Assembly: GCA_016192545.1 (NCBI GenBank) | Contig: JACPTX010000051.1 | Coordinates: forward strand, 1-11,366 | Source of the DNA: Candidatus Omnitrophota bacterium | Lineage (GTDB): Bacteria; Omnitrophota; Gorgyraeia; Aquiviventales; Aquiviventaceae | DNA length: 11,366 bases | Direction of reading: 5' to 3' | In this document: in pieces, positions 1 to 11,366 of the stretch | Layout: the number at the start of each line of letters is the position of its first letter | How positions within the stretch are numbered: the first letter of the stretch is position 1 | Notes under the pieces: model-generated | Databases searched by the model: none | Told to the model about the DNA's origin: nothing | What the model saw: the letters and a program-made list of their open reading frames with translations, nothing else | Program-made: the position numbers and the translations under genes

Positions 1-151
1 CGCACGACAACCCCCGCTGGGCGTGGATGTCGTTGGCGAACAGGGCGGCCGGGCCGCGCGCCTCGCCCTCCATCTGGCGGTGGCACTCGACGCAGCTGTT
101 CGATGGCGGCTCAGCCCTCGCCAGGCCGGGCGCCAGCGCCAGGCTGGCCAT
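1..151 (-). CDS. c-type cytochrome, 5' part only. Starts at ATG 151 and runs off the left window edge. Begins with a signal-peptide-like N-terminus, then CVECH, then a ...[12 protein letters not shown] segment (paired-CXXCH style). Likely the cytochrome c partner of the Rieske/cytochrome b complex.
   Basis: Minus-strand translation from ATG(151) reads [50 protein letters not shown] with no stop before position 1. It lies 14 nt downstream of the cytochrome b stop. The ORF track does not list it because its stop lies outside the window. Confidence 0.55.
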
Positions 152-165
152 GAGACTGAGGCGTG

Positions 166-1186
166 TTAATGCGCGTGCGGTGTCACCCATGCGGCGTACC
201 CTGTCATCCCGAGGATATACGAGACTGCGGCGATCCCGGCCGCCCACACCACCCACGAGGCCCTGCCCTTCCGGGCGGGCCGGTCCAGCCACGGCACCAG
301 CACGAGCACGGCACCGGCCGCCCCTGTGAGCCCCACCGCGATCAACTCGCCCTCGATGCCGAACACATGACCCGGAAACAGCTTCAGCGTCTGGAACATC
401 CAGAGGAAGTACCACTCGGGCTGGATCCCGACCGGCGTCGGCGCGAAGGGATCCGCCTTCGTGCCACGCGACCACGTCGCGCAGCAGGAAGTTGGGGAAA
501 AAAGGCCTGGACCGGTCGTCCGTCACCGAGAGGGGCTTGCTCATCCCCTGGAGCTGAATCATCACGAGATGGACCGCCAGGAGGGCGAGGAGCCCGGCCG
601 GCAGCACCGCGATATGGAACCAGAAAAATCTCGTGAGCGTGACGTCCCCGACGTCGCTGCCGCCGCGAAGAATCATCTGCATGACCGGCCCCACGACGGG
701 CACGACCCCGGCGATCTCCGTGCCCACCTTCGTCGCAAAGAACGCCAGGGTGTTCCACGGCAGGAGATAGCCGGTGAAGCCGAATCCCAGCAAGAGGAAG
801 AAGAGGAGCACCCCGGTGACCCAGGTGAGCTCGCGCGGCGGGCGGTACGCCTTTAGGAAAAACGTGCTGGCCAGGTGCACCATGGCGCAGAGGATCACGA
901 GGTTCGCCGCCCACGCGTGGACGCTCCGGATGAGCCATCCGAACTCGACCTTCGTCATGATGAAGCGGATGGACTCGAACGCCTCCTGCGCGGAGGGACG
1001 GTAATACAACAGGAGCAGGAGACCGCTGGCGAGCTGAATGCCGATGAGCACGAGGGTCATCCCGCCCCAGTAGTACCAGACGCTGTGGCGGTGGAGGGGG
1101 ACGGTCTTGTGGGTGGCCAGCTCAGCCAACCCGCCGAACTGGTAGCGCTCGCGGAGGAAGGCGCGCAGCCGTTCGATGAGGGCCAT
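166..1186 (-). pseudogene. petB/qcrB-like: Cytochrome b of a bc/b6f-type complex, b6-like with a fused subunit-IV-like C-terminus. The reading frame is interrupted around 455-466 and a roughly 20-aa segment (helix E) appears to be missing. This is either a genuine pseudogene or an assembly/sequencing error.
   Basis: From ATG 1186 the frame reads MALIERL...[24 protein letters not shown] (two His 14 residues apart, helix B)...[15 protein letters not shown]...GYLLPWN...[47 protein letters not shown] (two His 15 residues apart, helix D)...[15 protein letters not shown]. This is a strong cytochrome b6 signature. The protein then continues only in the +1 frame (ORF 166..399 and its upstream extension): [30 protein letters not shown] plus two more hydrophobic helices, i.e. 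the subunit IV / cytochrome b C-terminus with a PEWY motif. Between DVVAW and ADPF there are only about 4 codons, where homologues have a roughly 25-30 aa transmembrane helix. Confidence 0.7.
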
Positions 1187-1191
1187 CGGCC

Positions 1192-1659
1192 TCAGGCGGG
1201 TTTGGAGACGATGATCTCCTCACCCCGCACGTTCACCTGGAAGGCCTCCAGGGGCCGCGGGGGCGGACCGGAGATGACCTGGCCGTTGAGGTCGAACTTG
1301 CCGTTGTGGCACGCGCACCAGATGACGCTGACCTGAGGGTCGTACTGGACGGTGCAGTTGAGGTGGGTGCACACGGCAGAAAACGCTTTGAGCTCGCCTT
1401 GGGGCGTATGGATGAGAATCCCGGGACGGTTGCCGAATCGAAAGACCTTTGCGCTGTTTGTCGCCACTTCCCCGATCTGAGCGGCCACGACGTTTGACAC
1501 TGACGATTCCGCGCCGCGAGGGGGGTAGAGATACCGCACGATGGGATAGAGCGCGGCGCCGAGGAACGCGAGGACGCCTCCCTTGAGCAGGAACCGCAAG
1601 AAGGCTCGCCGGCTAATCGGCTGCGCTGGACACATCAGACGCGTTGCGCCACGCTGCAT
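1192..1659 (-). CDS. petC/qcrA-like: Rieske [2Fe-2S] iron-sulfur subunit of the cytochrome bc complex, Tat-dependent. Alternative starts are GTG 1689 and ATG 1635.
   Basis: Rieske box I CTHLNC and box II CACHNG. There is a twin-arginine motif SRRAFLRF followed by a hydrophobic anchor. GAGGG lies 8 nt upstream of ATG 1659. The stop is 5 nt before the cytochrome b ATG. Confidence 0.9.
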
Positions 1660-1716
1660 CCGGCCTGCCCTCGAGCGCCCGGTGGACACTCATCGTCGAC
1701 CATCATACCATAATGA

Positions 1717-2244
1717 TTACCAGAGCTTGGCGGCTTCTTCCTCAAGACCGGCATAGAGCTCCTGGTAGCGGTCCGGGTATTGCTGTTGAAACTCTTCAAG
1801 CAGGCGCTCCCGGAACGCCTCGAACTCCTCCCGCCGGTCAAGCTTGCGCACCTGGGAGTCGTGGACGAGGAACTCCCAGAGCTGCCTGGCCTCCGAGCCG
1901 TTGATCTGGCTGCCGGGTTTGTGCCACATCACCCTGACGTAGTGCTCCCAGAACGCGGGACTGGCCCATTGGGAATTGACGGCTCGAGCCAGGGTATGGC
2001 ACCGGGAGCACCTCCGCGCGAACAGGGCATACGAGCGCTGCATCTGCGGCGGATAGCCGGACACGTCAATCTCATCCGGACCTAGGTCGTTGGCGTACGG
2101 CCGCTTCGCGGCTTCCTGGATCTGCTCCTGCGTCCGCTGTTCGTCCGGCGACGGCTCTTGGGCGCCGAGGGGCGGCACCCCCCACGCCGTCAGCGCGATC
2201 AGCAGGGGCGCCGCCAGCCACCGGCGCATGCCTCGCCGCGGCAT
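1717..2244 (-). CDS. Monohaem c-type cytochrome, secreted, with an acidic coiled C-terminus. It occupies the ActE-like position at the end of the ACIII/Qrc-like module.
   Basis: Single CSRCH motif. N-terminus MPRRGMRRWLAAPLLIALTAWG resembles a signal peptide. ATG 2244 overlaps the upstream stop (TAATG). The ORF track start at 2256 is a GTG. Confidence 0.75.
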   Translation of the reverse strand: MPRRGMRRWLAAPLLIALTAWGVPPLGAQEPSPDEQRTQEQIQEAAKRPYANDLGPDEIDVSGYPPQMQRSYALFARRCSRCHTLARAVNSQWASPAFWEHYVRVMWHKPGSQINGSEARQLWEFLVHDSQVRKLDRREEFEAFRERLLEEFQQQYPDRYQELYAGLEEEAAKLW

Positions 2245-3608
2245 TAGCGAGACCACTCCCAGGCCGTCTTCGTTGCAGGCGCCGGCGGCGCCTCGCCCTC
2301 AGGCAGATAGGTTGTGAGCCGCTCCACGGTGTCCTGGATTCCCCGCTGCCGGCCCTCCTCCACCTCCCAGACCGAAATGATCGGAAACACCTTGGCGAAG
2401 AGCGTGTACAGCAGGAGGAACGCCGCAAAGGCCCCCGCGGTGATCGCTCCCTCCACCCACGTCGGCGTATAGCCGCTGGTGGGAACGGGCAGCCGCGGGT
2501 TGATGAGCGAAGGCACGACGATGATGAACCGCTCCAGCCACATGCCGACGAGGATGGTGCTCGAGGCCACCACCATGCCCGGAATCGTGCGGGTGGCGGG
2601 CAGGCTCAGGATGACGAGGGGAATGGCGAAACAACAGGCCGCCATGGTCCAGAAGTAGGGCGCGTAGGGCCCGGAGAGCTTGGCCCAGAAAATCGTCATC
2701 TCATCCGGCTCATGTCCGTAGAATGTGGTGAGGTACTCCGCAAAGGTGAAGTAGGTCCACAGGCACGTCATCACCAGCAGGAGGAGGCCGAGGTTCTTGA
2801 AGTGGACCGGCTTGAGGTACGCCTCCAGCCGGTAGGTCTTGCGCAGCACCGCCATCGCGAGGATCAGGGCGGCGATCCCGGAGTAGATCGCGCCCACGAC
2901 AAAATACGGGCCGAAAATGGTGCTATGCCACATCGGCTGAACGGTCATGGCGAAGACCCAGGAGACGACCGTGTGGACCGAGACGGCGATGGGGATGACG
3001 ACGACCGCCAGCACGGCGATCGCCAGCTCCAGCCGGTGCCGCTCGTTCGGCGTGCCCCGCCAGCCCAGCGCCAGGGCACCGTAGAACCATCGCCGCCGCG
3101 GCAGCCGGTCTCTGAGGAGCGCGATGTCCGGAATGAGCGGCAGGTAGAGATAGCAGATGCTGGCTGTCACATAGGTGGTGATGCTCGTGACGTCCCACAG
3201 CAGGGGGGAGCGGAAATTGGGATGCAGGAAGACGTTGAGCGCCCGGTCCGGGCGCCCGAGATCCATGATGATGTTGCCCGCCCCGATAAACAGGACCAGG
3301 ACGGTGATCGTCTCCGCCATGCGCGTGATCGGCCTCCGCCATTCGGCCTGGCAGAGGCGCAGGATCGCCGAGATCAGCGTCCCGGCATGGCTGATGCCGA
3401 TGAAGAATACGAAGTTGGTGATGTAGATGCCCCAGAACACCGGGCGGTTCAGGCCGGTCACGACGAGGCCGTCGCGAAGCTGGTGCACCCAGGCATAGGC
3501 CGCGAAGCCGATGACGGCCAGCAGGAATCCGACGAGCAGGAAAAATGGCCTCGAAAACCGGGTCATCGAGGCGATCAGGTCGGCTTCGAGGTCCCGCGGC
3601 TGCGCCAT
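2244..3608 (-). CDS. NrfD/PsrC-family integral membrane quinone-interacting subunit. About 10 hydrophobic segments, ActC/QrcD/DsrP-like in size.
   Basis: 454 aa and highly hydrophobic, with a WGIYITNFVFFIGISHAG-type NrfD-family motif. It starts 2 nt after the FeS-subunit stop. Confidence 0.85.
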   Translation of the reverse strand: MAQPRDLEADLIASMTRFSRPFFLLVGFLLAVIGFAAYAWVHQLRDGLVVTGLNRPVFWGIYITNFVFFIGISHAGTLISAILRLCQAEWRRPITRMAETITVLVLFIGAGNIIMDLGRPDRALNVFLHPNFRSPLLWDVTSITTYVTASICYLYLPLIPDIALLRDRLPRRRWFYGALALGWRGTPNERHRLELAIAVLAVVVIPIAVSVHTVVSWVFAMTVQPMWHSTIFGPYFVVGAIYSGIAALILAMAVLRKTYRLEAYLKPVHFKNLGLLLLVMTCLWTYFTFAEYLTTFYGHEPDEMTIFWAKLSGPYAPYFWTMAACCFAIPLVILSLPATRTIPGMVVASSTILVGMWLERFIIVVPSLINPRLPVPTSGYTPTWVEGAITAGAFAAFLLLYTLFAKVFPIISVWEVEEGRQRGIQDTVERLTTYLPEGEAPPAPATKTAWEWSR

Positions 3609-3610
3609 CG

Positions 3611-4429
3611 TCAGGCCTCAGCGAGGTAGGTCACTTTGGGTCGCGTCCCCAACTCTTCCTGCAACAGCGAGCGGCGGGGGCTCCGCCCCAGCTGCGACGC
3701 CGCGCTGTTCGGCTCGTCGAGATCGCCGAAGGCAATGGCTCGGGCGGGGCAGACCTGCATGCACGCCGGCACATAGTCCCCCTCGCGCAGGGTCCGTCCG
3801 TCGCTGGCGGCCTGCTCCTTCGCCCGGATGAGCCGGTGGTGGCAAAAGGTGCATTTCTCGGTGACGCCCTTGGGGCGCACCGACACATCGGGGTTGTGCA
3901 TGGCCTCCATCGGCGCGGGCCAGGTGGGCGTCGACCAGTTGAAGAACTTGCAGGTGTAGGGACAGGCGTTGACGCAGTAGCGGCAGCCGATGCACCGGGG
4001 ATAGATTTGGGCGACCAACCCTTCCGGATTTTTGTACGTGGCAAAGACCGGGCAGACCGGGGTGCAGGGCGGCCGATCGCAGTGCTGGCACGGGACGGGC
4101 ATGAGGCGCTGGCGCACCGCCGGGTATTCCCCCTCTGTTGAGGGGAGCAGCGTCATCCACTCGATGATGCGCCCGGCCCGATGCGCCTCGGGACTCGGCA
4201 GCGGCTGGTTGTTCTCCGCCCAGCAGGCGACCACGCAGGCCTGGCAGCCCGTGCACCGATCCAGGTCGATCACCATCCCCCACCGGTGCGGGCGAGCCGC
4301 GACGGCTTGCCCAGGCGCCTGACGGACCGACGCCTCGGCCTTCGACAGACGTCGAAAGAGCGCGAGCGACGCCGCGGCCGCCAGGGCCCGGGCGAGGAAC
4401 GAGCGTCGAGAATAGGCTAGGCCTTCCAT
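3611..4429 (-). CDS. Four-cluster [4Fe-4S] ferredoxin-type electron-transfer subunit (PsrB/NrfC/ActB2/QrcC-like) with its own Tat signal.
   Basis: RRSFLARALAAAASLALF Tat motif. Four Cys clusters: CTGCQACVVAC; CQHCDRPPCTPVCP; CIGCRYCVNACP; CTFCHH...CMQVCP. Its ATG overlaps the upstream gene by 13 nt (ATGGAAGGCCTAG). Confidence 0.9.
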   Translation of the reverse strand: MEGLAYSRRSFLARALAAAASLALFRRLSKAEASVRQAPGQAVAARPHRWGMVIDLDRCTGCQACVVACWAENNQPLPSPEAHRAGRIIEWMTLLPSTEGEYPAVRQRLMPVPCQHCDRPPCTPVCPVFATYKNPEGLVAQIYPRCIGCRYCVNACPYTCKFFNWSTPTWPAPMEAMHNPDVSVRPKGVTEKCTFCHHRLIRAKEQAASDGRTLREGDYVPACMQVCPARAIAFGDLDEPNSAASQLGRSPRRSLLQEELGTRPKVTYLAEA

Positions 4430-6687
4430 ACCTTCACCAGCGTCCCTTGCCAGAACGGCTGCCCGGTTTGCTCATCCAGCCGGCGGCCAACCAGATGAGC
4501 CGGATTGGCGCCGATGTCCTTGGCCCAGCGGCCGCACGCCAGATGGCCAAGCCCAAGGGGCATGGCGACCACGCCTGGCACCACGCCTTCACACCAGCGG
4601 GCCGTGGCCTCCACCTTCCCATGAAGCGATGCGATCCAGATCCGCTCGCCATCGCGGATGCCGAACTGCCGGGCCGTGCTCGGGTGGAGTTCCGCCCACG
4701 TCTCCCACGCCTCGGAGAGGTGGCGGCCGGCGATCTGCTGCAGGAACGGCAGATGCGCGCCGGTCCCCGCAAGGAAGGCCAGGGGCGAGTAGAGATAGAG
4801 CTGTAGGGGAGCGTGCTGCGCCTCGCCACCACCGGCCTCCGCCGAAGCCGTTTCGAGGAGGGTCGTCATGGCGTCCGGGAACAACTCCAGCCGTCCGGAC
4901 GGCGTGCGAAACTCAGCCCACGGGGCGTCTTCCGCGGGCCAGACCGCTCCCCCGCCCAACCGTAGACGCTCCAGCAGCCCCTCGCCGCTCGTTGGAGGCT
5001 TGTCCGCCTCTCGCATCGTCTCGCTCGACCACCTGATCGGCGGAAGCGGCGTCCCGGACTTCGTCTCGTAGAGCGCCTGCGCCCGCTCCTTGACGAGCGG
5101 CTCCACCGAATCCCAGGGGAACGCGCCCGCCACGGGCGGGCCGAGCGCGCGGGCCAGCTGGAGGATCACCTCCTCCAACGCCCGGGCTGCTCCGCGCGGC
5201 GGCACCACCGGAGGGGTGATGTTCACCGCCGCGCGGCCGTCGCTGGTGCAGACGGACGCGAACTGCCACTGCTCCAGCGCGGTCGCCAGCGGCAGCACGA
5301 GGTCCGCGTGGAGCGCCGTCTCATCAAGCATCGACGCGAAGCTCACGATGAACGGCATCCGGCCCAAGGCCTCGACCCACCGCGAGGGCGATGGGCTGAT
5401 GAAGCAGGGGTTGGCCTGGTGGACGCAGAGGATCTCGATGGGCGCCTCGGTCCCATCGAGAAGGTGTTCGGGCAGCCGTTCGGCGTGCGCCAGCCGCTGG
5501 GCCTGCAGGCCCCGCTCGGCGACGTCATCGCGCGCCGGCTCGGGAGGCAGCGAGAGCCCCGGCGGCTCCCAGCGCCGCAGGACGCCGCCGCGCGCATCGA
5601 GGTTCCCCACCAATCCGTTCAGGCTCATGACGGCCCATTGGGTCATCAGATCCGCCCGCGCTCCCACGGCGAGGCCCCGTCTCAGGCCGAACTCCTTCGC
5701 CAGGCGCTGGATGGTTTCCGGAGGAACGCCCGTCCGCTCCGCCACCGCCTCCGGATCGGCGCGGGAGGCGACGAAGCGCGCGAAGGGCTCCAATCCGACG
5801 CTGTTCTGCGCCAGCTGATCATGGATGAGCCGCTCGCGGATCAGCACGTGCGCGATCCCCAGGGCGAGCCACCCGTCCTGCCCAGGCCGAATGGGGATCC
5901 ACTCGTCACTCTTCGCCGCCGTCATGGAGAGCCGCGGTTCCACCTGGACGATGCGCGCCCGCCGATCGCTGCGGCCCTGGCGAAGCCACCCGTATGCGCG
6001 CGAGGCTTCCACCGGCGAGGGATAGGCCTGAAGCCAGTCAAGGCCGAAGGAGAGGAGCAGGTTGGCCTGCGCGAGATCGTAGAGCGGCTCGCCCTCCCGA
6101 TCCACCATCAGTCGAAATGCCTCGGCTGGCAGCTCTCCGGCCGGCGGGCTCAAGACAAGATCGTGCGGGGATCCCCACGCGCGCAGGAAACGCTGGATGA
6201 GCTGCCGGCCGAGACTCCGGGAGGGACCGCTCAGCCAAGCCAAGCGCTGCGGCTCGCCGCGCTGGCGAAGCCCGCGAAGGCGGTCCACGAGCAACGGCAT
6301 CGCCTCCTCCCACGCCACCGGCTCGAAGCGGCCCTCACCCCGCTCGCCCACCCGCCGCAGCGGCTGGAGGAGGCGATCCGGATGGTAGAGCTCGGTGAGG
6401 CCTGCGGCACCTCGCGGACAGAGGGCGCCCTGATTGACCGGATGGGCGGGAAGCCCCTCCAGCTTCACGACTCGGCCTTGCACCACGCGCGCCGCGACGC
6501 CGCAGCCGGCCGGACACAGTTGACAGACGGAAGGCGCCCACTGCTCCGGCGCCCTCGGCAACAGCTCTTCGTCCGCGGCGGGAGGCGGCAAGCCCAGCAG
6601 CCGATACTTGATGAGATCCTCCACGGCCCCTGCGGTGGTCGCGATGAGGCCGGTCAGTCCAAGAAAGGCGCGCCGGGTCAGTTCCAT
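4417..6687 (-). CDS. Molybdopterin-oxidoreductase-family large subunit (PsrA/PhsA-size, ActB1/QrcB-like). Tat-exported, with an N-terminal FS0 [4Fe-4S] motif.
   Basis: MELTRRAFLGL Tat signal. C-x2-C-x3-C-x27-C-PRG (CQLCPAGC...CPRG). VAWEEAM and C-terminal GIRDGERIWIAS...GVVAMPLG motifs are typical of the family. GGAG lies 10 nt upstream of the ATG. There is no Cys between residue 91 and about 420, so the usual Cys Mo ligand is absent. Confidence 0.85.
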   Translation of the reverse strand: MELTRRAFLGLTGLIATTAGAVEDLIKYRLLGLPPPAADEELLPRAPEQWAPSVCQLCPAGCGVAARVVQGRVVKLEGLPAHPVNQGALCPRGAAGLTELYHPDRLLQPLRRVGERGEGRFEPVAWEEAMPLLVDRLRGLRQRGEPQRLAWLSGPSRSLGRQLIQRFLRAWGSPHDLVLSPPAGELPAEAFRLMVDREGEPLYDLAQANLLLSFGLDWLQAYPSPVEASRAYGWLRQGRSDRRARIVQVEPRLSMTAAKSDEWIPIRPGQDGWLALGIAHVLIRERLIHDQLAQNSVGLEPFARFVASRADPEAVAERTGVPPETIQRLAKEFGLRRGLAVGARADLMTQWAVMSLNGLVGNLDARGGVLRRWEPPGLSLPPEPARDDVAERGLQAQRLAHAERLPEHLLDGTEAPIEILCVHQANPCFISPSPSRWVEALGRMPFIVSFASMLDETALHADLVLPLATALEQWQFASVCTSDGRAAVNITPPVVPPRGAARALEEVILQLARALGPPVAGAFPWDSVEPLVKERAQALYETKSGTPLPPIRWSSETMREADKPPTSGEGLLERLRLGGGAVWPAEDAPWAEFRTPSGRLELFPDAMTTLLETASAEAGGGEAQHAPLQLYLYSPLAFLAGTGAHLPFLQQIAGRHLSEAWETWAELHPSTARQFGIRDGERIWIASLHGKVEATARWCEGVVPGVVAMPLGLGHLACGRWAKDIGANPAHLVGRRLDEQTGQPFWQGTLVKVWKA

Positions 6688-6920
6688 CGACGTGGTGGCT
6701 CCGGGGCGCCGCCGGCCTGCTGGGCCAGGAAGCGGTCAATGGCCTGGATGACCAGCCGGCTCTTTGGCAGCGATTCACCCCGCTCCCACCGGTTCAGGCT
6801 GGAGTACGCGACCCCCAATTGATGGGCGCAATACTCCTGCGACCACCCCCTGGCTCGACGGAGGGCCGTCACCTGTTTAATGGCGCGTTTCAGCCGCGTC
6901 GTCTGCGTATCCATCTGCAT
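6678..6920 (-). CDS. XRE-family helix-turn-helix transcriptional regulator (80 aa).
   Basis: GWSQEYCAHQLGVAYSSLNRWERGESLPKSRLVIQAIDRFL is a classic HTH_3 pattern. Its stop overlaps the ATG of the downstream Mo-family subunit (ATGGAACTGA). Confidence 0.7.
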   Translation of the reverse strand: MQMDTQTTRLKRAIKQVTALRRARGWSQEYCAHQLGVAYSSLNRWERGESLPKSRLVIQAIDRFLAQQAGGAPEPPRRWN

Positions 6921-6997
6921 AGCATAAGATACAACACATGGGCATCAGAAAAACATGACATACGTCATACAGGATGGCGGCGCGCCCGCGCACGCGG
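6921..6997 (-). promoter_or_regulatory. AT-rich intergenic region carrying the inverted repeat ATGAC-N4-GTCAT. Candidate promoter/operator for the XRE-led operon.
   Basis: This is the only AT-rich stretch in the window. It sits between the pentahaem cytochrome stop and the XRE start. 6955..6968 reads atgacatacgtcat, and ACATG occurs twice as a direct repeat. Confidence 0.3.
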
Positions 6998-7522
6998 CTA
7001 CCGATGGCAGGCGAGGCAGTCGGTGGTGACCTGCCGCTGCCGATGGCACTCCAGGCAGCGGTCCATCGTGAGGGGAGCGGCCTGGCGGACGACGGGGGCC
7101 GTCACTTGGCTCAGGTCCCCGTGGCAGAGGGCGCAGTCAAGTTGCGCGAGCGTCACGTGGCGCCGGTGCGAGAAATACGCGTGCCCGGGCACCCGGTAGA
7201 CCTGCTTCCAGGGGATCTCCTCGCCGCGCGCGGCCACCTGCTCCAGCTGCGGCCCGACTCGGTCCAGCACCGGCGTCTGGACGCCGACCGCCGCGTGGCA
7301 GTCCACGCAGTCCGTGACCGCCGGGACGCCGGCGAAGGTCTCCGTTTCGGCCTGCGCATGGCAGGTCACGCAGGTGAGCCCCGCCGCGAGATGCTTCTGG
7401 TGGTTGAACGGGATGAGCGGCTGGACCGCCTGAGGGCGCTGGCTGGCGCGCTCGCGCATCGCGTAGAACGTCGTGCCCGCGAGGACCGCCAGGGCGACCA
7501 GCAGCAGGAGGCGCTCCCTCAT
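6998..7522 (-). CDS. Membrane-anchored pentahaem c-type cytochrome built from two c3/c7-like units. Candidates are ActA/QrcA-like or a CymA-like quinol-side partner.
   Basis: N-terminal hydrophobic helix MRERLLLLVALAVLAGTTFYA. Five CXXCH motifs (CVTCH, CVDCH, CALCH, CLECH, CLACH). Two F-x-H-x2-H motifs (FNHQKH, FSHRRH) precede haem sites. Confidence 0.85.
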   Translation of the reverse strand: MRERLLLLVALAVLAGTTFYAMRERASQRPQAVQPLIPFNHQKHLAAGLTCVTCHAQAETETFAGVPAVTDCVDCHAAVGVQTPVLDRVGPQLEQVAARGEEIPWKQVYRVPGHAYFSHRRHVTLAQLDCALCHGDLSQVTAPVVRQAAPLTMDRCLECHRQRQVTTDCLACHR

Positions 7523-7543
7523 GTCGTCGGCCGAGAGGAGGCG

Positions 7544-8428
7544 CTAGGACGTGGTGGCGTGAGGTGGAGGGGGGCTCTTCGGAACACCTTGCGCAAGCGC
7601 CGTGAGGCCGGTCATCGCTCCCAGGTTCATGGTCTCCACGGCACTGGAAGGCACGATGATGATGGTGGAGCTCTGACGCATGCCCTCCAGCAGGATGTTC
7701 ATGGCGCGCAGGTGCAGGGCCGTCGGGTTCTCCGCGTACGCGCGGGAGGCTTCTTCGAAGCTGCGGGCCACCTGGCGCTCCGAGTCTCCCAGGATGATCC
7801 GCGCCTGCCGTTCGCGCTCGGCCTGGGCCTGCATCGACATCGCGTTCTGGAGCGCCTCGGGGATCTTCACGTCCCGGATCTCGACGGACAGGGCCTTGAT
7901 GCCCCACGGCTCGGTGCGGTGGTCGATCGTCTCGCACAGCAGCACGTCAATCTTGTCCCTTCCGATGAGCATCTCCGCCAGGTCCGTCTTGCCGATCACG
8001 TCCCGCAGGGCGGTTTGCGAGGCCCAGGCGATCGCCTCGCGGTAATTCTCGACTTCCAGCGCCGCTTTGATCGAGTCCACCACCCGCCAGAACAGCACGG
8101 CGTCCACGTCAACCGGCACGCTGTCCTTCGTCAAGGTCTGCTCGGCGGCGAATGGTGTGGTGATGGTCCGCAGGTCGATCCAGTGGGAGATGGCGTCGAG
8201 GATCGGCACGATCAGGAAGAACCCGGGCCCCTTGAGCCGGTGGAACCTTCCCAACCGCAAGACCACCGCCTTCTGCCACTGCTGGGCCACGCGGATCGCC
8301 GGGCTCAGCAGCAGCCCGACGGCGACCATGCCCACCGTCACCCACGGATTCCCGGTCGCCGCCCCTCCGACGAAGCCTACGGCGACGAGTGCGAGAAAGA
8401 GCAGGATCGCCAATGGGTGCGTCCCCAT
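7544..8428 (-). CDS. SPFH/band-7 (stomatin-prohibitin-flotillin-HflK/C) family membrane protein.
   Basis: N-terminal transmembrane segment followed by QQWQKAVVLRLGRFHRLKGPGFFLIVPILD...IDLRT and a long Ala/Glu/Arg-rich coiled region. AAGGAGG lies 9 nt upstream of the ATG. Confidence 0.85.
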   Translation of the reverse strand: MGTHPLAILLFLALVAVGFVGGAATGNPWVTVGMVAVGLLLSPAIRVAQQWQKAVVLRLGRFHRLKGPGFFLIVPILDAISHWIDLRTITTPFAAEQTLTKDSVPVDVDAVLFWRVVDSIKAALEVENYREAIAWASQTALRDVIGKTDLAEMLIGRDKIDVLLCETIDHRTEPWGIKALSVEIRDVKIPEALQNAMSMQAQAERERQARIILGDSERQVARSFEEASRAYAENPTALHLRAMNILLEGMRQSSTIIIVPSSAVETMNLGAMTGLTALAQGVPKSPPPPHATTS

Positions 8429-8446
8429 GATCGCTTGCCTCCTTCG

Positions 8447-10522
8447 TCAGAATTGCTGAGTCACCTCAAGCCAGATCACGTGGGCGGTATAGTCGCCGGA
8501 CTCGACGTTCTCGTTGGGGTTGTAGGTGTAGAGCGCGTAGTCAAGCCCGAGCGACGTCTGGTCACTCGGCGACCATGCGATTCCTGTCGTGAGGTCAAGC
8601 CGGTGGAAATCCGCCCCGAACGGCATCCCGGTGTCGGCGAAGTCATTGAAGTTCTGCGCCCGGGAATAGAGGAGCGAGCTGGTCCACGTCAGGTTCGGCT
8701 TGGGCGCGTAGTCCGCGCTGAAGAGCCAGCTCGAAACGTCGGCGTTGAACGTCGGGATGTTGGAGGGCGTCGAGGCATACCGGGCCGGCGTCGTGGTCGC
8801 GGCGTTCTGCCGGGAAAACGACGCCGTCGTCACCAGTTCTTTCAGCGGCTGCAGCGTCACGTCGTAGGTGTAGATGTGGGAGCGCGTGCCCGTCTTCACG
8901 GTGTCCTGCGATTCCGCCCGCGTGCTGTAATCGTCGTCGCGGTACTGGTAGCGGACGGAGGACCGGAACCACCGGCACGGCCGGAGGGTAAAGCGCGTGA
9001 CGAACTCGTTGGTGTGGATGTTCTGCTCGTCAATGAACGCCGACCGGGCCCCGCTCGCCACGGTCTCCCGCTGGTCGTCGTAGTCGTTGTTGTTGACCCG
9101 CCGGCGCACGTGCGCCGTGAGATCCAGGAACGGCCAGGGGCTGCTGCGCCCGCCGAGCGTCCAGACGCCCCGGCGCACGTCCGTGACCGTCTCGCGCATG
9201 AAGACCTCGGTGGCCACCGCGTCATTCCCCGTGTCCGGGCCGTCGAGGCTCTGGCGGTCCTCCCGCATGAGCACCCGGGACTGCTCGAATTCCAGCTCCG
9301 TATAGAGCGCCGTCCGGGGAAGGCCGGTGAAGCGCAACGAGAACCCCTCCCCCCACCGCGCCGCCTTCGTGTCCGTCAGGTTCGCCTCCGTGTGATCCAC
9401 CACCAGGTCGAAGGCCTCCGGGGACGTGACGTATTCCGAGTAGGCGGGATAGGTGGAGTTGCTTTGCCGTTTGATGACCTCGGACTTCAGCTTGGTGCCG
9501 AAGGACAGCGATTCCCCCAGCTGCGTCGTCAGGTTCCCCACCCAGGTGTGCGAGTCATAGTCGTTGTCTGCCCGCGAGTCGAACTTGTTCTCGGCGCGCG
9601 AAAAGTTCGTGACGACGCCGGCGGCGTTCATCTCGATCAGGGTTTCATACTCGCGGCTGTCCAGGTGCGCGAAGTGGTAGCCCGTCGACAGGAACACCTT
9701 CTCGTTCAGGAAATGGCGCTCGGCCCCCAGGGTCGTGGTCATGAGGGTTGACTCCGGCGCCTGGTCCTGGGTGCGCATCAGCGACTCCGAGGCGGTGGCG
9801 TTCGTCGAGCGGTACACTTCATGCCGGACGGTCTCCGAGCGCGCGAACTCCCACCGCTGCTCCCCGCGCAAGGCGAATCCCGCGAGCTCGTGGTTGGCCG
9901 TGAGCGCGAAGGCATCCACAATCTCGTCAATGTCCTGCCACGAGGGGCCGATCTTCCTGGCTTCCCCGGCCTCGGTCACGGACGTCCACGTCAGGCGGGA
10001 TTTGGCCCCGTCCTTGAATTCCCGCTCATAGGCGAACGACAATTCCGGCCACCCTTCCAGCGTCAGGCCGGTTTCCACACCCAACTTCCCGATGTCCAGC
10101 GCCAGGTCTTCATCGGCATCAATAGTCTGGAAGGTCGAAAAACGCCGATGGGTCCCGCCATTGCCGTCGAAGTATTTGCGGAACTCGGAATACTCCAGAT
10201 TGAAGAAGCCGAGCGTATCCTTCTTGAGTTCCACATCCGTTCCGAAGTCATTCTGGCTTGGGAACGCATGCCCTTCAGCGGAGAGGAACGTGCCATCAGG
10301 CAGGGTGTGCCGGAACAGGAACTCCTTCACCCCGCCTGCGTAGCCCTCTTTCATCCAGTGGTGGGCGCGGAATTTTTCGACGTCGCCGTCCACGAAGGCA
10401 TAGCGCATCGGCACCAGCGCCACGGCGACTTCCGGGTCCGCGGCCTCCACCCCACCAGGCCAGCACCAAAACCCGCCGGCCGCCACCATGGCCAGGACCG
10501 TCACGCGTCGCATGGCTCGCAT
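8447..10522 (-). CDS. Outer-membrane beta-barrel protein of 691 aa. Its context suggests an MtrB/PioB/MtoB-like porin of a porin-cytochrome conduit.
   Basis: Signal peptide MRAMRRVTVLAMVAAGGFWCWPGGVEA|AD. Polar/aromatic alternating beta-strand patterns throughout. Terminal ...YTAHVIWLEVTQQF ends in Phe. GGGAGG lies 7 nt upstream of the ATG. The gene sits immediately (15 nt) downstream of a multihaem cytochrome c gene. Confidence 0.6.
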   Translation of the reverse strand: MRAMRRVTVLAMVAAGGFWCWPGGVEAADPEVAVALVPMRYAFVDGDVEKFRAHHWMKEGYAGGVKEFLFRHTLPDGTFLSAEGHAFPSQNDFGTDVELKKDTLGFFNLEYSEFRKYFDGNGGTHRRFSTFQTIDADEDLALDIGKLGVETGLTLEGWPELSFAYEREFKDGAKSRLTWTSVTEAGEARKIGPSWQDIDEIVDAFALTANHELAGFALRGEQRWEFARSETVRHEVYRSTNATASESLMRTQDQAPESTLMTTTLGAERHFLNEKVFLSTGYHFAHLDSREYETLIEMNAAGVVTNFSRAENKFDSRADNDYDSHTWVGNLTTQLGESLSFGTKLKSEVIKRQSNSTYPAYSEYVTSPEAFDLVVDHTEANLTDTKAARWGEGFSLRFTGLPRTALYTELEFEQSRVLMREDRQSLDGPDTGNDAVATEVFMRETVTDVRRGVWTLGGRSSPWPFLDLTAHVRRRVNNNDYDDQRETVASGARSAFIDEQNIHTNEFVTRFTLRPCRWFRSSVRYQYRDDDYSTRAESQDTVKTGTRSHIYTYDVTLQPLKELVTTASFSRQNAATTTPARYASTPSNIPTFNADVSSWLFSADYAPKPNLTWTSSLLYSRAQNFNDFADTGMPFGADFHRLDLTTGIAWSPSDQTSLGLDYALYTYNPNENVESGDYTAHVIWLEVTQQF

Positions 10523-10537
10523 TGTCCGCCTCCCGGG

Positions 10538-11366
10538 TTAATAGCGCAGGTGCTCGTCAAAGTTCGACCCGTGCGGGGCCGTATGACAGCCCGCGCTGAA
10601 ACACGTCCCCTGATTCAGCCGGCCCGAATGGCTCGACCCCCCGATCGTCGGGAAGTTGGTCTGGGTATGGCAGCGCAGGCAGAGGTTGACATCCCGCACC
10701 AGCAGCATCTTTTCGTGAATCGAGCCGTGGACCTTATGGCAGGTCGTGCAACCCTCCCGCAGCGCCTCGTGTTCCCACACGAACGGCCCGCGCTGCTCCT
10801 TGTGGCATCGGAAGCACGCCTCATTGATGTCTTTCAGCGACGTGGCGGACCACGGCCGGACGTCCGGGGCGTGGGCGTTGTGGCAATCCGCGCAACTCAT
10901 CTTGCCCTCAAGCAGCGGGTGGTGGTAGGGCAATCGAAACTCCGCTTTCTTATCTAAATGGCAAGCGAAGCAGGTGCTGGGGTCTTTGCGCGGATTAATG
11001 ATGCCGCCCACCCCGCGGCCTCCCCCGGCCTCGACGTGCAGGCTGCCGGGCCCGTGGCACATCTCACAGCCCTGCCCTTTGACGTTCTCGTCGGTAATCC
11101 TGATCCTGGCGTGGGTCGACTGCTGGAACTCTTGGTACTTCTTTTCGTGGCATGCCCGGCAGGTTTCCGTGCCGACGTATTCGGCTTCCGGTGGCTCGAC
11201 CGGCTTGGCGGACTCCTCGGCGGACTCGGCCCATGCCTCAGGCGCGACTAACCGACTGAGATACGCTTGCAACTGGCCTGCGGCATCGGGTGACTGCCGC
11301 GAAGAGTGCGGAGGGCTTTCTTCGACGTCGTTCTTCTTGATCGGCGCGACACCCGCCGGCACAGAC
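10538..11366 (-). CDS. Multihaem c-type cytochrome with at least 8 haems in the window. The N-terminus lies beyond the right window edge. MtrA/PioA/OmaB-like periplasmic partner of the downstream beta-barrel.
   Basis: CRACH, CEMCH, CFACH, CADCH, CFRCH, CTTCH, CLRCH plus CFSAGCH (CX4CH), spaced about 25-30 aa apart with interleaved His. The ORF is open to the window edge; the listed 'M' at 11362 is a GTG. Confidence 0.9.
   Translation of the reverse strand, partial: SVPAGVAPIKKNDVEESPPHSSRQSPDAAGQLQAYLSRLVAPEAWAESAEESAKPVEPPEAEYVGTETCRACHEKKYQEFQQSTHARIRITDENVKGQGCEMCHGPGSLHVEAGGGRGVGGIINPRKDPSTCFACHLDKKAEFRLPYHHPLLEGKMSCADCHNAHAPDVRPWSATSLKDINEACFRCHKEQRGPFVWEHEALREGCTTCHKVHGSIHEKMLLVRDVNLCLRCHTQTNFPTIGGSSHSGRLNQGTCFSAGCHTAPHGSNFDEHLRY

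Follow-up and report, generated by a model that had tools for sequence, protein, structure and literature searches.

A slipin clade encoded with an ACIII/Qrc-like NrfD module in Omnitrophota and other bacterial phyla

The 11,366-nt contig JACPTX010000051.1 of a Candidatus Omnitrophota bacterium, analysed here from end to end and referred to as the window, carries all its genes on the minus strand, among them a gene of the stomatin (slipin) family of SPFH proteins at positions 7544 to 8428. This gene lies between the gene of a putative outer-membrane porin and that of a pentahaem cytochrome c, and the arrangement raises the question of which neighbour the slipin belongs with. An earlier reading, made from the sequence only, had considered the cytochrome, porin, SPFH and second cytochrome genes together, and had proposed to look for this arrangement in related genomes. 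The comparison is strongly positive for the slipin and the respiratory module that begins with the downstream cytochrome, which are found together in 18 of 18 distinct loci of the slipin clade, whereas the cytochrome-porin-SPFH-cytochrome order is not conserved (2/18). The invariant partner of the slipin is the downstream NrfD module, resembling alternative complex III (ACIII) and Qrc, and not the porin. Moreover, since the neighbouring genes match ActA, ActC and Qrc-like B and C subunits, the slipin is predicted to head an ACIII/Qrc-like quinol:cytochrome c oxidoreductase unit.

The contigs of increasingly distant slipin homologues, together with 160 loci from genome and metagenome collections, were examined. 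Throughout the 18 loci the slipin shares an operon with the module, usually directly 5' of the cytochrome gene, and the clade slipins examined are all co-oriented with, and inside or right beside, the NrfD/iron-sulfur/multihaem genes. The hosts are spread over about six phyla (Omnitrophota, Elusimicrobiota, Acidobacteriota, Planctomycetota, "Deltaproteobacteria" and Nitrospirota). Slipin, cytochrome, B, C and NrfD genes succeed one another in the window, in L009 to L014 and in L016 to L019; besides the window, these loci belong to Omnitrophica (L009, L010), an unassigned contig (L011), Elusimicrobia (L012 to L014, L016), Acidobacteriota (L017, L019) and Planctomycetota (L018). The cytochrome is the gene found most regularly after the slipin, in 11 loci. 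L176 and L177 have the same order with the B gene interrupted by an insertion sequence, and the short contigs L015 and L092 stop just past the multihaem cytochrome that follows the slipin. Other loci are rearranged: L178, from a "Deltaproteobacteria" metagenome-assembled genome (MAG), has slipin, cytochrome, iron-sulfur and NrfD genes without B; L180, from a Nitrospirae MAG, has the four-gene module followed by the slipin and a c554-like cytochrome; and L182 to L185, metagenome contigs from the JGI that form a large branch, read iron-sulfur protein, NrfD, multihaem cytochrome, small open reading frame (ORF), slipin and cytochrome c. An NrfD-type protein is the only subunit found in every locus long enough to display the module (15/18). 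Also, five pairs of slipin and B-subunit matches are on contigs of equal length, which suggests that further contigs may carry both genes. The genes upstream of the slipin vary in the other loci, being class-I cytochromes c, a Rieske/cytochrome b/cytochrome c fusion, two-component regulators or unrelated genes.

The slipins linked to the module are also distinct in sequence. In a tree of 162 distinct slipins, the 18 module-linked sequences correspond to one exact split, recovered in 198 of 200 bootstraps. They are marked by the signature residues M1, G2, H4, P5, P92, E127, D161, R185, K188, I245, L247 and M250, at which the sister group differs; M1 and H4 are invariant in 31 sequences, with an N-terminus of the form M-G-x-H-P, and the sister group starts with basic residues. 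Either the N-terminal motif or a C-terminal LAKE motif occurs in 110 of the best 120 database matches, so the clade is not small. Percent identity was tried as a separator and fails, with unlinked fragments reaching 66-71% over partial alignments; hence the tree is needed. After removal of the initial Met, slipin residues 1 to 5 (8417 to 8428, minus strand) would begin with NH2-G-x-H, formally a Cu/Ni-binding motif of the ATCUN type (NH2-X-X-His), a metal-binding reading that was dropped because the variants MKIHP and MRxHP are incompatible with it.

The sister group (~58-64% identity) supplied the control. The scan of metagenome contigs returned only this ~60%-identical group and one short clade contig (L092), and was used as the control set. 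Of the 87 sister loci that extend at least 3 kb to either side of the slipin, two show any match to a module gene, one of them being an isolated molybdopterin match and the other, L079, the only full module; the difference in linkage between the clade (18/18) and its sister (2/87) has a Fisher p of 2e-18. When the 148 ORFs around 80 sister slipins (at least ~1.5 kb on each side) were classified by Pfam, no conserved family emerged, none occurring in more than six ORFs, and NfeD, cytochrome and NrfD families are not among the 25 most frequent. The comparison marks the link to a respiratory module as a derived, clade-defining trait.

The same control bears on NfeD, a usual partner of SPFH proteins. 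No NfeD gene is present among the ten window genes scanned against Pfam and NCBIfam, as the earlier reading had stated, or among the listed or scanned genes of the clade loci. However, NfeD is not among the 25 most frequent families beside sister slipins either, and 124 of 353 SPFH1 proteins have no adjacent NfeD, the other 229 being in an operon with it (Hinderhofer et al. 2009, PMC2636767). Lack of NfeD is then inherited from a wider NfeD-less slipin lineage, and it does not set this gene apart.

Two sister loci deserve separate mention. In L079 (positions 3286 to 10876, Nitrospinae MAG), a more divergent non-clade slipin comes after a cytochrome-B-C-NrfD series with one ORF between, which encodes a NarJ-like chaperone domain fused to a 4Fe-4S domain. 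Either slipin and module came together here independently for a second time, or the locus is the remnant of an older association. In L082 (9373 to 9897, Acidobacteriaceae), the ORF just upstream of an unlinked sister slipin has weak YflT/ActD Pfam matches (E=1e-8 and 7e-6).

The features of the window, in the direction of transcription, are as follows.

10538 to 11362, minus strand: DmsE/MtrA-family multihaem cytochrome, cut by the contig end (TIGR03508, 160.9 bits against a cutoff of 192.2).
8447 to 10522, minus strand: MtrB-like outer-membrane beta-barrel of 691 aa, predicted from an AlphaFold2 (AF2) model and Foldseek.
8438 to 8444, minus strand: Shine-Dalgarno sequence AAGGAGG, read from the sequence, within the 18-nt gap past the porin stop codon.
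7544 to 8428, minus strand: slipin/stomatin-family SPFH gene of 294 aa (Band_7), with a predicted hairpin, SPFH domain and long C-terminal helix.
6998 to 7522, minus strand: putative ActA-like pentahaem cytochrome c of 174 aa with an N-terminal anchor (ActA matches in the PDB, CxxCH count).
6678 to 6920, minus strand: XRE-type helix-turn-helix (HTH) gene of 80 aa (HTH_3, E=2.3e-8), between the cytochrome and B genes.
4417 to 6687, minus strand: molybdopterin-oxidoreductase-like B subunit of 756 aa (Pfam Molybdopterin, Molybdop_Fe4S4 and Molydop_binding) with a twin-arginine signal.
3611 to 4429, minus strand: 4Fe-4S subunit C of 272 aa, QrcC/DsrO/ActB2-like (Fer4_11).
2244 to 3608, minus strand: NrfD-family membrane subunit of 454 aa, ActC type, predicted to interact with quinone (NrfD, E=3.2e-38).
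1717 to 2256, minus strand: monohaem protein of 179 aa (CSRCH; motif and tblastn positions).
1192 to 1689, minus strand: Rieske iron-sulfur protein (Rieske, E=1.7e-13), with which a Rieske/cytochrome b complex starts 3' of the ACIII-like module.
~110 to 1186, minus strand: cytochrome b, partial and frameshifted, identified through the gene calls of L001.

The cytochrome downstream of the slipin contains five CxxCH motifs and an N-terminal hydrophobic anchor, in agreement with its earlier description as a membrane-anchored pentahaem protein. Its matches in the PDB are the ActA chains of ACIII, with E-values from 2e-24 to 2e-19 (8k9e_A, 1.9e-24; 6f0k_A, 4.8e-21), and the QrcA profile also finds it (E=1.6e-22, below the family cutoff). 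Based on these matches, the protein is the ActA-like first subunit of the module and not a free-standing cytochrome. The NrfD protein matches ActC with E-values from 7e-72 to 1e-66 (6f0k_C, 7.4e-72; also 6lod_C and 6btm_C). The B subunit has ArrA as its best PDB match and is nearer to ArrA/PsrA than to ActB (2e-20), and the best NCBIfam matches of the B and iron-sulfur proteins are QrcB and QrcC. However, all the Qrc profile scores are below their cutoffs, being 79.9/180 bits for QrcA, 302/440 for QrcB, 271/400 for QrcC and 48/570 for QrcD. The B and iron-sulfur subunits are encoded by separate genes, unlike the fused ActB (B1+B2), and the Pfam and NCBIfam scans gave no match in the window for a second NrfD gene (ActF) or for ActD.

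The monohaem protein has no Pfam match and only a weak SorB match in NCBIfam. Its homologues nonetheless travel with the unit, since tblastn places them past the NrfD gene in the window and in L009, L010, L013 and L014, and upstream of the slipin, 0.6-0.9 kb away, in L011, L012, L016, L017 and L019; it is possibly an ActE analogue. The unit consists of the slipin, the ActA-like cytochrome, the molybdopterin-like B subunit, the iron-sulfur C subunit and the ActC-type NrfD protein, plus the monohaem cytochrome. In the window it is flanked by an MtrAB-like porin-cytochrome pair upstream and by the Rieske/cytochrome b complex downstream.

How closely the slipin is tied to the module can be judged from spacing and divergence. 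Slipin and cytochrome genes are ~11-80 nt apart. No other gene of the unit is as conserved as the slipin, which has a mean pairwise p-distance of 0.29 versus 0.37 for C, 0.42 for NrfD, 0.56 for the cytochrome and 0.62 for B. Moreover, the distances between slipins are correlated with the subunit distances (r=0.92, 0.90, 0.83 and 0.72; Mantel p=2e-4), as highly as bona fide subunits correlate with each other (0.69-0.73). This shows that the slipin is co-inherited with the module under strong constraint, an interaction not being implied by the correlation itself.

The slipin itself was largely as first described, a 294-aa stomatin-family protein. It passes the family threshold for Band_7/SPFH (PF01145, E=9.8e-34, 117.4 bits against a cutoff of 23.6), and a Candidatus Omnitrophica MAG encodes an identical protein under the annotation "slipin family protein". 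Its best sequence matches in the PDB are the Pyrococcus horikoshii stomatin PH1511 (4e-44), human stomatin (4e-43) and Escherichia coli QmcA, the alignment to human stomatin extending to residue 260. Membership in HflK or HflC was rejected, with 64.1 bits versus 159.4 for HflK and 32.3 versus 134.4 for HflC, the gene being single and unpaired. The spacing given earlier is also exact: 18 nt separate the upstream ORF from the slipin (8429 to 8446) and 21 nt the slipin from the cytochrome (7523 to 7543), and AAGGAGG lies 9 nt ahead of the slipin ATG. Co-transcription with the electron-transfer genes had been asserted from these features; the genes are apparently co-operonic, and no promoter-like or terminator-like site was found in 6600 to 11366, which fits co-transcription and is no proof of it.

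In contrast, the single N-terminal transmembrane segment of the earlier description was wrong. Hydropathy shows two hydrophobic helices at residues ~5-25 and 28-45, peaking near residues 13 and 38 and falling at the G-N-P turn between them, and the AF2 model (mean pLDDT 72.8) has helices at 5-25 and 28-58, then the SPFH domain and a long helix at 191-252 (predicted as 191-233 and 235-252). The hydrophobic anchor directly ahead of the SPFH domain is accordingly a two-helix hairpin. In Foldseek, human stomatin and PH1511 are the best fold matches of this model, QmcA is found too, and the HflK/C-FtsH cages are also listed. Arg and Lys are frequent in the stretch that follows helix 2 (RVAQQWQKAVVLRLGRFHRLK), the N-terminus of the sister group being likewise basic; by the positive-inside rule, these residues place the N-terminus and the SPFH domain of the slipin in the cytoplasm. 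Both would probably be cytoplasmic, as in QmcA, for which a cytoplasm-facing orientation is predicted (PMC10434171).

What the slipin could do for the module is suggested by its relatives. Stomatin, QmcA, HflK/C, prohibitin and flotillin all assemble into rings or cages, and these mark off a patch of membrane around their clients. We lean, by a modest degree, towards the clade slipin being a dedicated oligomeric stomatin cage that organises or stabilises the ACIII/Qrc-like complex. The slipin would be homo-oligomeric and form a ring or cage comparable to those of stomatin, QmcA and HflK/C solved by cryo-electron microscopy (16 to 26 chains per entry); the two-helix hairpin would anchor it, with the SPFH domain towards the cytoplasm. 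Such a cage could fence the membrane patch that holds the NrfD subunit and the cytochrome anchors, and may promote assembly, stability or the local organisation of lipids and quinone around the complex. It would then be a bacterial, operon-encoded counterpart of the role proposed for SLP-2 and prohibitins with mitochondrial respiratory complexes. Band-7 proteins have indeed been proposed as respiratory-chain scaffolds (PMC3986555), and a stomatin bound to aquaporin 1 (PDB code: 9zd2) is among the structural matches. The idea of scaffolding or quality control for a multihaem respiratory complex, which the sequence-only reading had put forward as a possibility, is still the best account of function. 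A stronger version, in which the clade would serve a minimal ACIII-like complex as its dedicated, stoichiometric partner and the cage possibly compensates for the missing ActD and ActF, is more tentative.

Several points weigh against the cage proposal. Every step of the mechanism is an extrapolation. The catalytic B and C subunits and the cytochromes are periplasmic, to judge from the twin-arginine signal on B, while the SPFH domain is predicted to be cytoplasmic, so direct contact would be limited to membrane helices and cytoplasmic loops. The correlation between slipin and subunit distances may mean mere shared inheritance of a transferred gene cluster, the tree was built by neighbour-joining only, and all the loci come from uncultured, metagenome-assembled genomes. 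Finally, related modules without a slipin exist, in L173 (beside haem-copper oxidase genes) and in L174/L175; such modules were sampled, with two informative loci, neither having a slipin. The slipin would thus be an accessory of a subset of these enzymes and not essential to the enzyme type.

Among the alternatives, the most weight falls on protease-coupled quality control, next on regulation of the NrfD subunit, then on hitch-hiking and last on a porin-centred unit. In the first, a slipin ring would recruit or gate a membrane protease such as FtsH and so govern turnover of the complex, with its haem and iron-sulfur load, without acting as its scaffold. HflK/C-FtsH cages are among the structural matches of the slipin, there are weak HflK/HflC profile matches, and QmcA is genetically linked to FtsH. 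Also, NfeD-linked and FtsH-linked roles are the classical functions of the SPFH1/3/4 groups (PMC2636767). However, no protease, FtsH or NfeD gene is among the listed or scanned genes of the clade loci, the HflK and HflC scores are far below the family cutoffs (64 versus 159 bits for HflK), and the only conserved neighbour is a substrate-like complex, which suits a scaffold equally well. We therefore regard protease coupling as unlikely, though it is the strongest of the alternatives.

The second alternative is that the slipin tunes the access of protons or quinone to the NrfD subunit, and does not act in assembly. Eukaryotic stomatins are reported to modulate ion channels, the stomatin-aquaporin 1 entry provides a structural precedent, and the presence of an ion-translocating NrfD-type protein in all loci able to show the module fits such a role; nonetheless, sequence analysis cannot tell this regulation apart from the scaffold, and we consider it improbable. 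A similarly low probability is given to neutral hitch-hiking, in which an ancestral chance juxtaposition spread with the cluster by horizontal transfer and the genes are not functionally coupled. The cluster is patchy across unrelated phyla, modules function without a slipin in other lineages, and congruent slipin and subunit trees are what a block moved as one would give. Nevertheless, the link has outlasted several independent rearrangements, in which the slipin is placed ahead of or behind the module, B is present or missing and the flanking genes differ, the slipin is more constrained than any subunit, its clade has invariant residues of its own, and a more distant slipin is again found beside a module in Nitrospinota (L079).

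The last alternative, that the slipin organises an Mtr/Pio/Mto-like extracellular electron-transfer conduit within a cytochrome-porin-SPFH-cytochrome unit, is very improbable and largely refuted by the neighbourhood data, for although the slipin follows the MtrB-like porin by 18 nt in the window and the decahaem-porin-slipin order is kept in L009, the only other locus in which a porin homologue adjoins the slipin, porin and decahaem genes are upstream of it in just these two of the 18 clade loci, the porin-to-slipin gap of L009 is ~250 nt while its slipin-to-cytochrome gap is short, and an SPFH protein of the inner membrane cannot directly contact an outer-membrane barrel.

The porin is consequently a variable neighbour, outside the conserved slipin unit, and the Mtr/Pio/Mto loci that the earlier reading took as its reference are beside the point for the slipin, whose conserved partner is the NrfD module; SPFH is not a conserved component there (2/18). 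The porin assignment itself is borne out. The 691-aa ORF has no Pfam match even at E<=1, no sequence match in the PDB and none to MtrB by sequence, but its AF2 model is a confident all-beta barrel of roughly 30 strands (pLDDT 88.8) whose best Foldseek match is MtrB (PDB code: 6r2q, chain B; TM 0.61/0.65), and on these two results the label of porin holds. Named members of this porin family are nearly all "hypothetical proteins" of Omnitrophica, most matches being nameless, and there is no Pfam model for it. The adjacent DmsE/MtrA-family cytochrome has seven CxxCH and one CxxxxCH motifs in the window, with one further CxxCH in the longer L001 copy. An MtrB-type barrel is thus encoded beside an MtrA/DmsE-type decahaem cytochrome, as in Mtr/Pio/Mto loci, and this suggests that these Omnitrophota perform extracellular electron transfer or oxidise Fe(II).

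Other features of these loci are independent of the slipin. The 80-aa XRE/HTH_3 gene overlaps the start of B by 10 nt. It is present in all same-species assemblies long enough to show it (L001 to L005), but in the closest relatives, L009 and L010, it is missing and 4-8 nt lie between cytochrome and B; the gene is confined to this species, outside the conserved unit, and looks like a recent insertion of a small regulator or antitoxin-like gene. Cytochrome b comes after the Rieske gene in L001 and L009. Near position 464, where the cytochrome b frame of the window is broken, ~53-56 nt are missing that are present in an independent Logan assembly of this sequence (L001, 11131 to 11183), in which the gene is an intact ORF of 358 aa, and the frameshift is either an assembly error or a genuine deletion variant. 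In L010, which carries a 76%-identical slipin homologue, a second Band_7 gene lies ~6 kb upstream of the slipin, and genes for an outer-membrane efflux protein and a multicopper oxidase lie 3' of the module (1 to 742 and 14690 to 17550). In L176 (9509 to 16915) and L177 (4253 to 11659), from Omnitrophica RIFCSPLOWO2_12_FULL_50_11, a DDE transposase cuts B short, a giant ORF comes next (called at 3687 to 4997 aa), and no iron-sulfur or NrfD gene is seen downstream. In L011 (678 to 4640), a NarJ-type chaperone, an EB_dh/cytochrome c protein (the type that serves as gamma subunit in Nxr/Nar-like enzymes) and a class-I cytochrome c are encoded upstream of the slipin unit, which hints that the module is wired to a nitrite/nitrate oxidoreductase in some organisms.

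A comparison with known systems places the slipin closest to the prokaryotic stomatins and slipins such as PH1511 and QmcA, with which it shares an N-terminal anchor followed by the SPFH domain and a long helix, and ~50% identity to the PH1511 core. It differs from them in lacking an NfeD partner (PH1510/YbbJ type), in having a two-helix hairpin instead of one helix, and in combining the MGxHP N-terminus with a respiratory complex as conserved operon partner. With HflK/C-FtsH it has a comparable predicted fold in common and would share the ring around a defined inner-membrane client; however, HflK/C is a two-gene, periplasm-facing hetero-oligomer whose client is a protease, whereas the slipin is a single gene with no protease gene in the lists of its loci. 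Flotillins FloA and FloT are likewise SPFH scaffolds that organise membrane protein complexes (PMC11222466), but they are SPFH2 proteins with an NfeD-like partner and many cargoes, and are not encoded in the operon of one cargo. The function proposed here is that of SLP-2 and the prohibitins, whose lipid microdomains are proposed to assemble or stabilise respiratory complexes and supercomplexes (PMC3986555, PMC8630662). The links of SLP-2 and prohibitins are biochemical and cell-biological, their clientele is broad, and they also act with the m-AAA, PARL and YME1L proteases; the link of the slipin is genomic only, one-to-one with a single enzyme type, and bacterial.

On the side of the enzyme, the module shares an ActA-like pentahaem cytochrome and an ActC-like NrfD protein with ACIII (ActABCDEF) but lacks ActD and ActF, and it shares separate B and iron-sulfur subunits with Qrc (QrcABCD), from which the profile scores set it apart. 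To our knowledge, neither ACIII nor Qrc includes an SPFH protein. No description of a link between slipins or other SPFH proteins and ACIII, NrfD or multihaem modules was found in the literature searched in full text, and cytochromes go unmentioned in the main survey of prokaryotic SPFH operons (PMC2636767). A literature match to NrfD and HflC was dismissed, as it concerns the YcdY-hflC-mdaB operon, and so was a Pelobacter paper with the two terms in unrelated places. While SPFH scaffolds and the mitochondrial precedent for respiratory clients are already known, a dedicated, operon-encoded slipin clade paired with one type of bacterial respiratory enzyme appears to be new and the association undescribed.

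As far as we know, the contents of SPFH/stomatin cages and their effect are established mainly for HflK/C-FtsH, and few prokaryotic stomatins have a known client. A slipin lineage that moves with one membrane enzyme across several phyla and through several operon rearrangements offers a specific candidate pair of scaffold and client. If the stoichiometric partner reading is true, this would be the first operon-encoded, client-specific pair of an SPFH protein and a respiratory enzyme in bacteria, and would give a direct handle on the effect of stomatin cages upon their clients. For annotation, the MGxHP N-terminus and the signature residues could set the clade apart from the generic "slipin family protein". 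Finally, for bioenergetics, the slipin is a candidate accessory factor for NrfD complexes of the ACIII/Qrc type in little-known lineages from groundwater and sediment (Omnitrophota, Elusimicrobiota and others), and bacteria would have in it a parallel to the mitochondrial scaffolds that SLP-2 and prohibitins are proposed to form.

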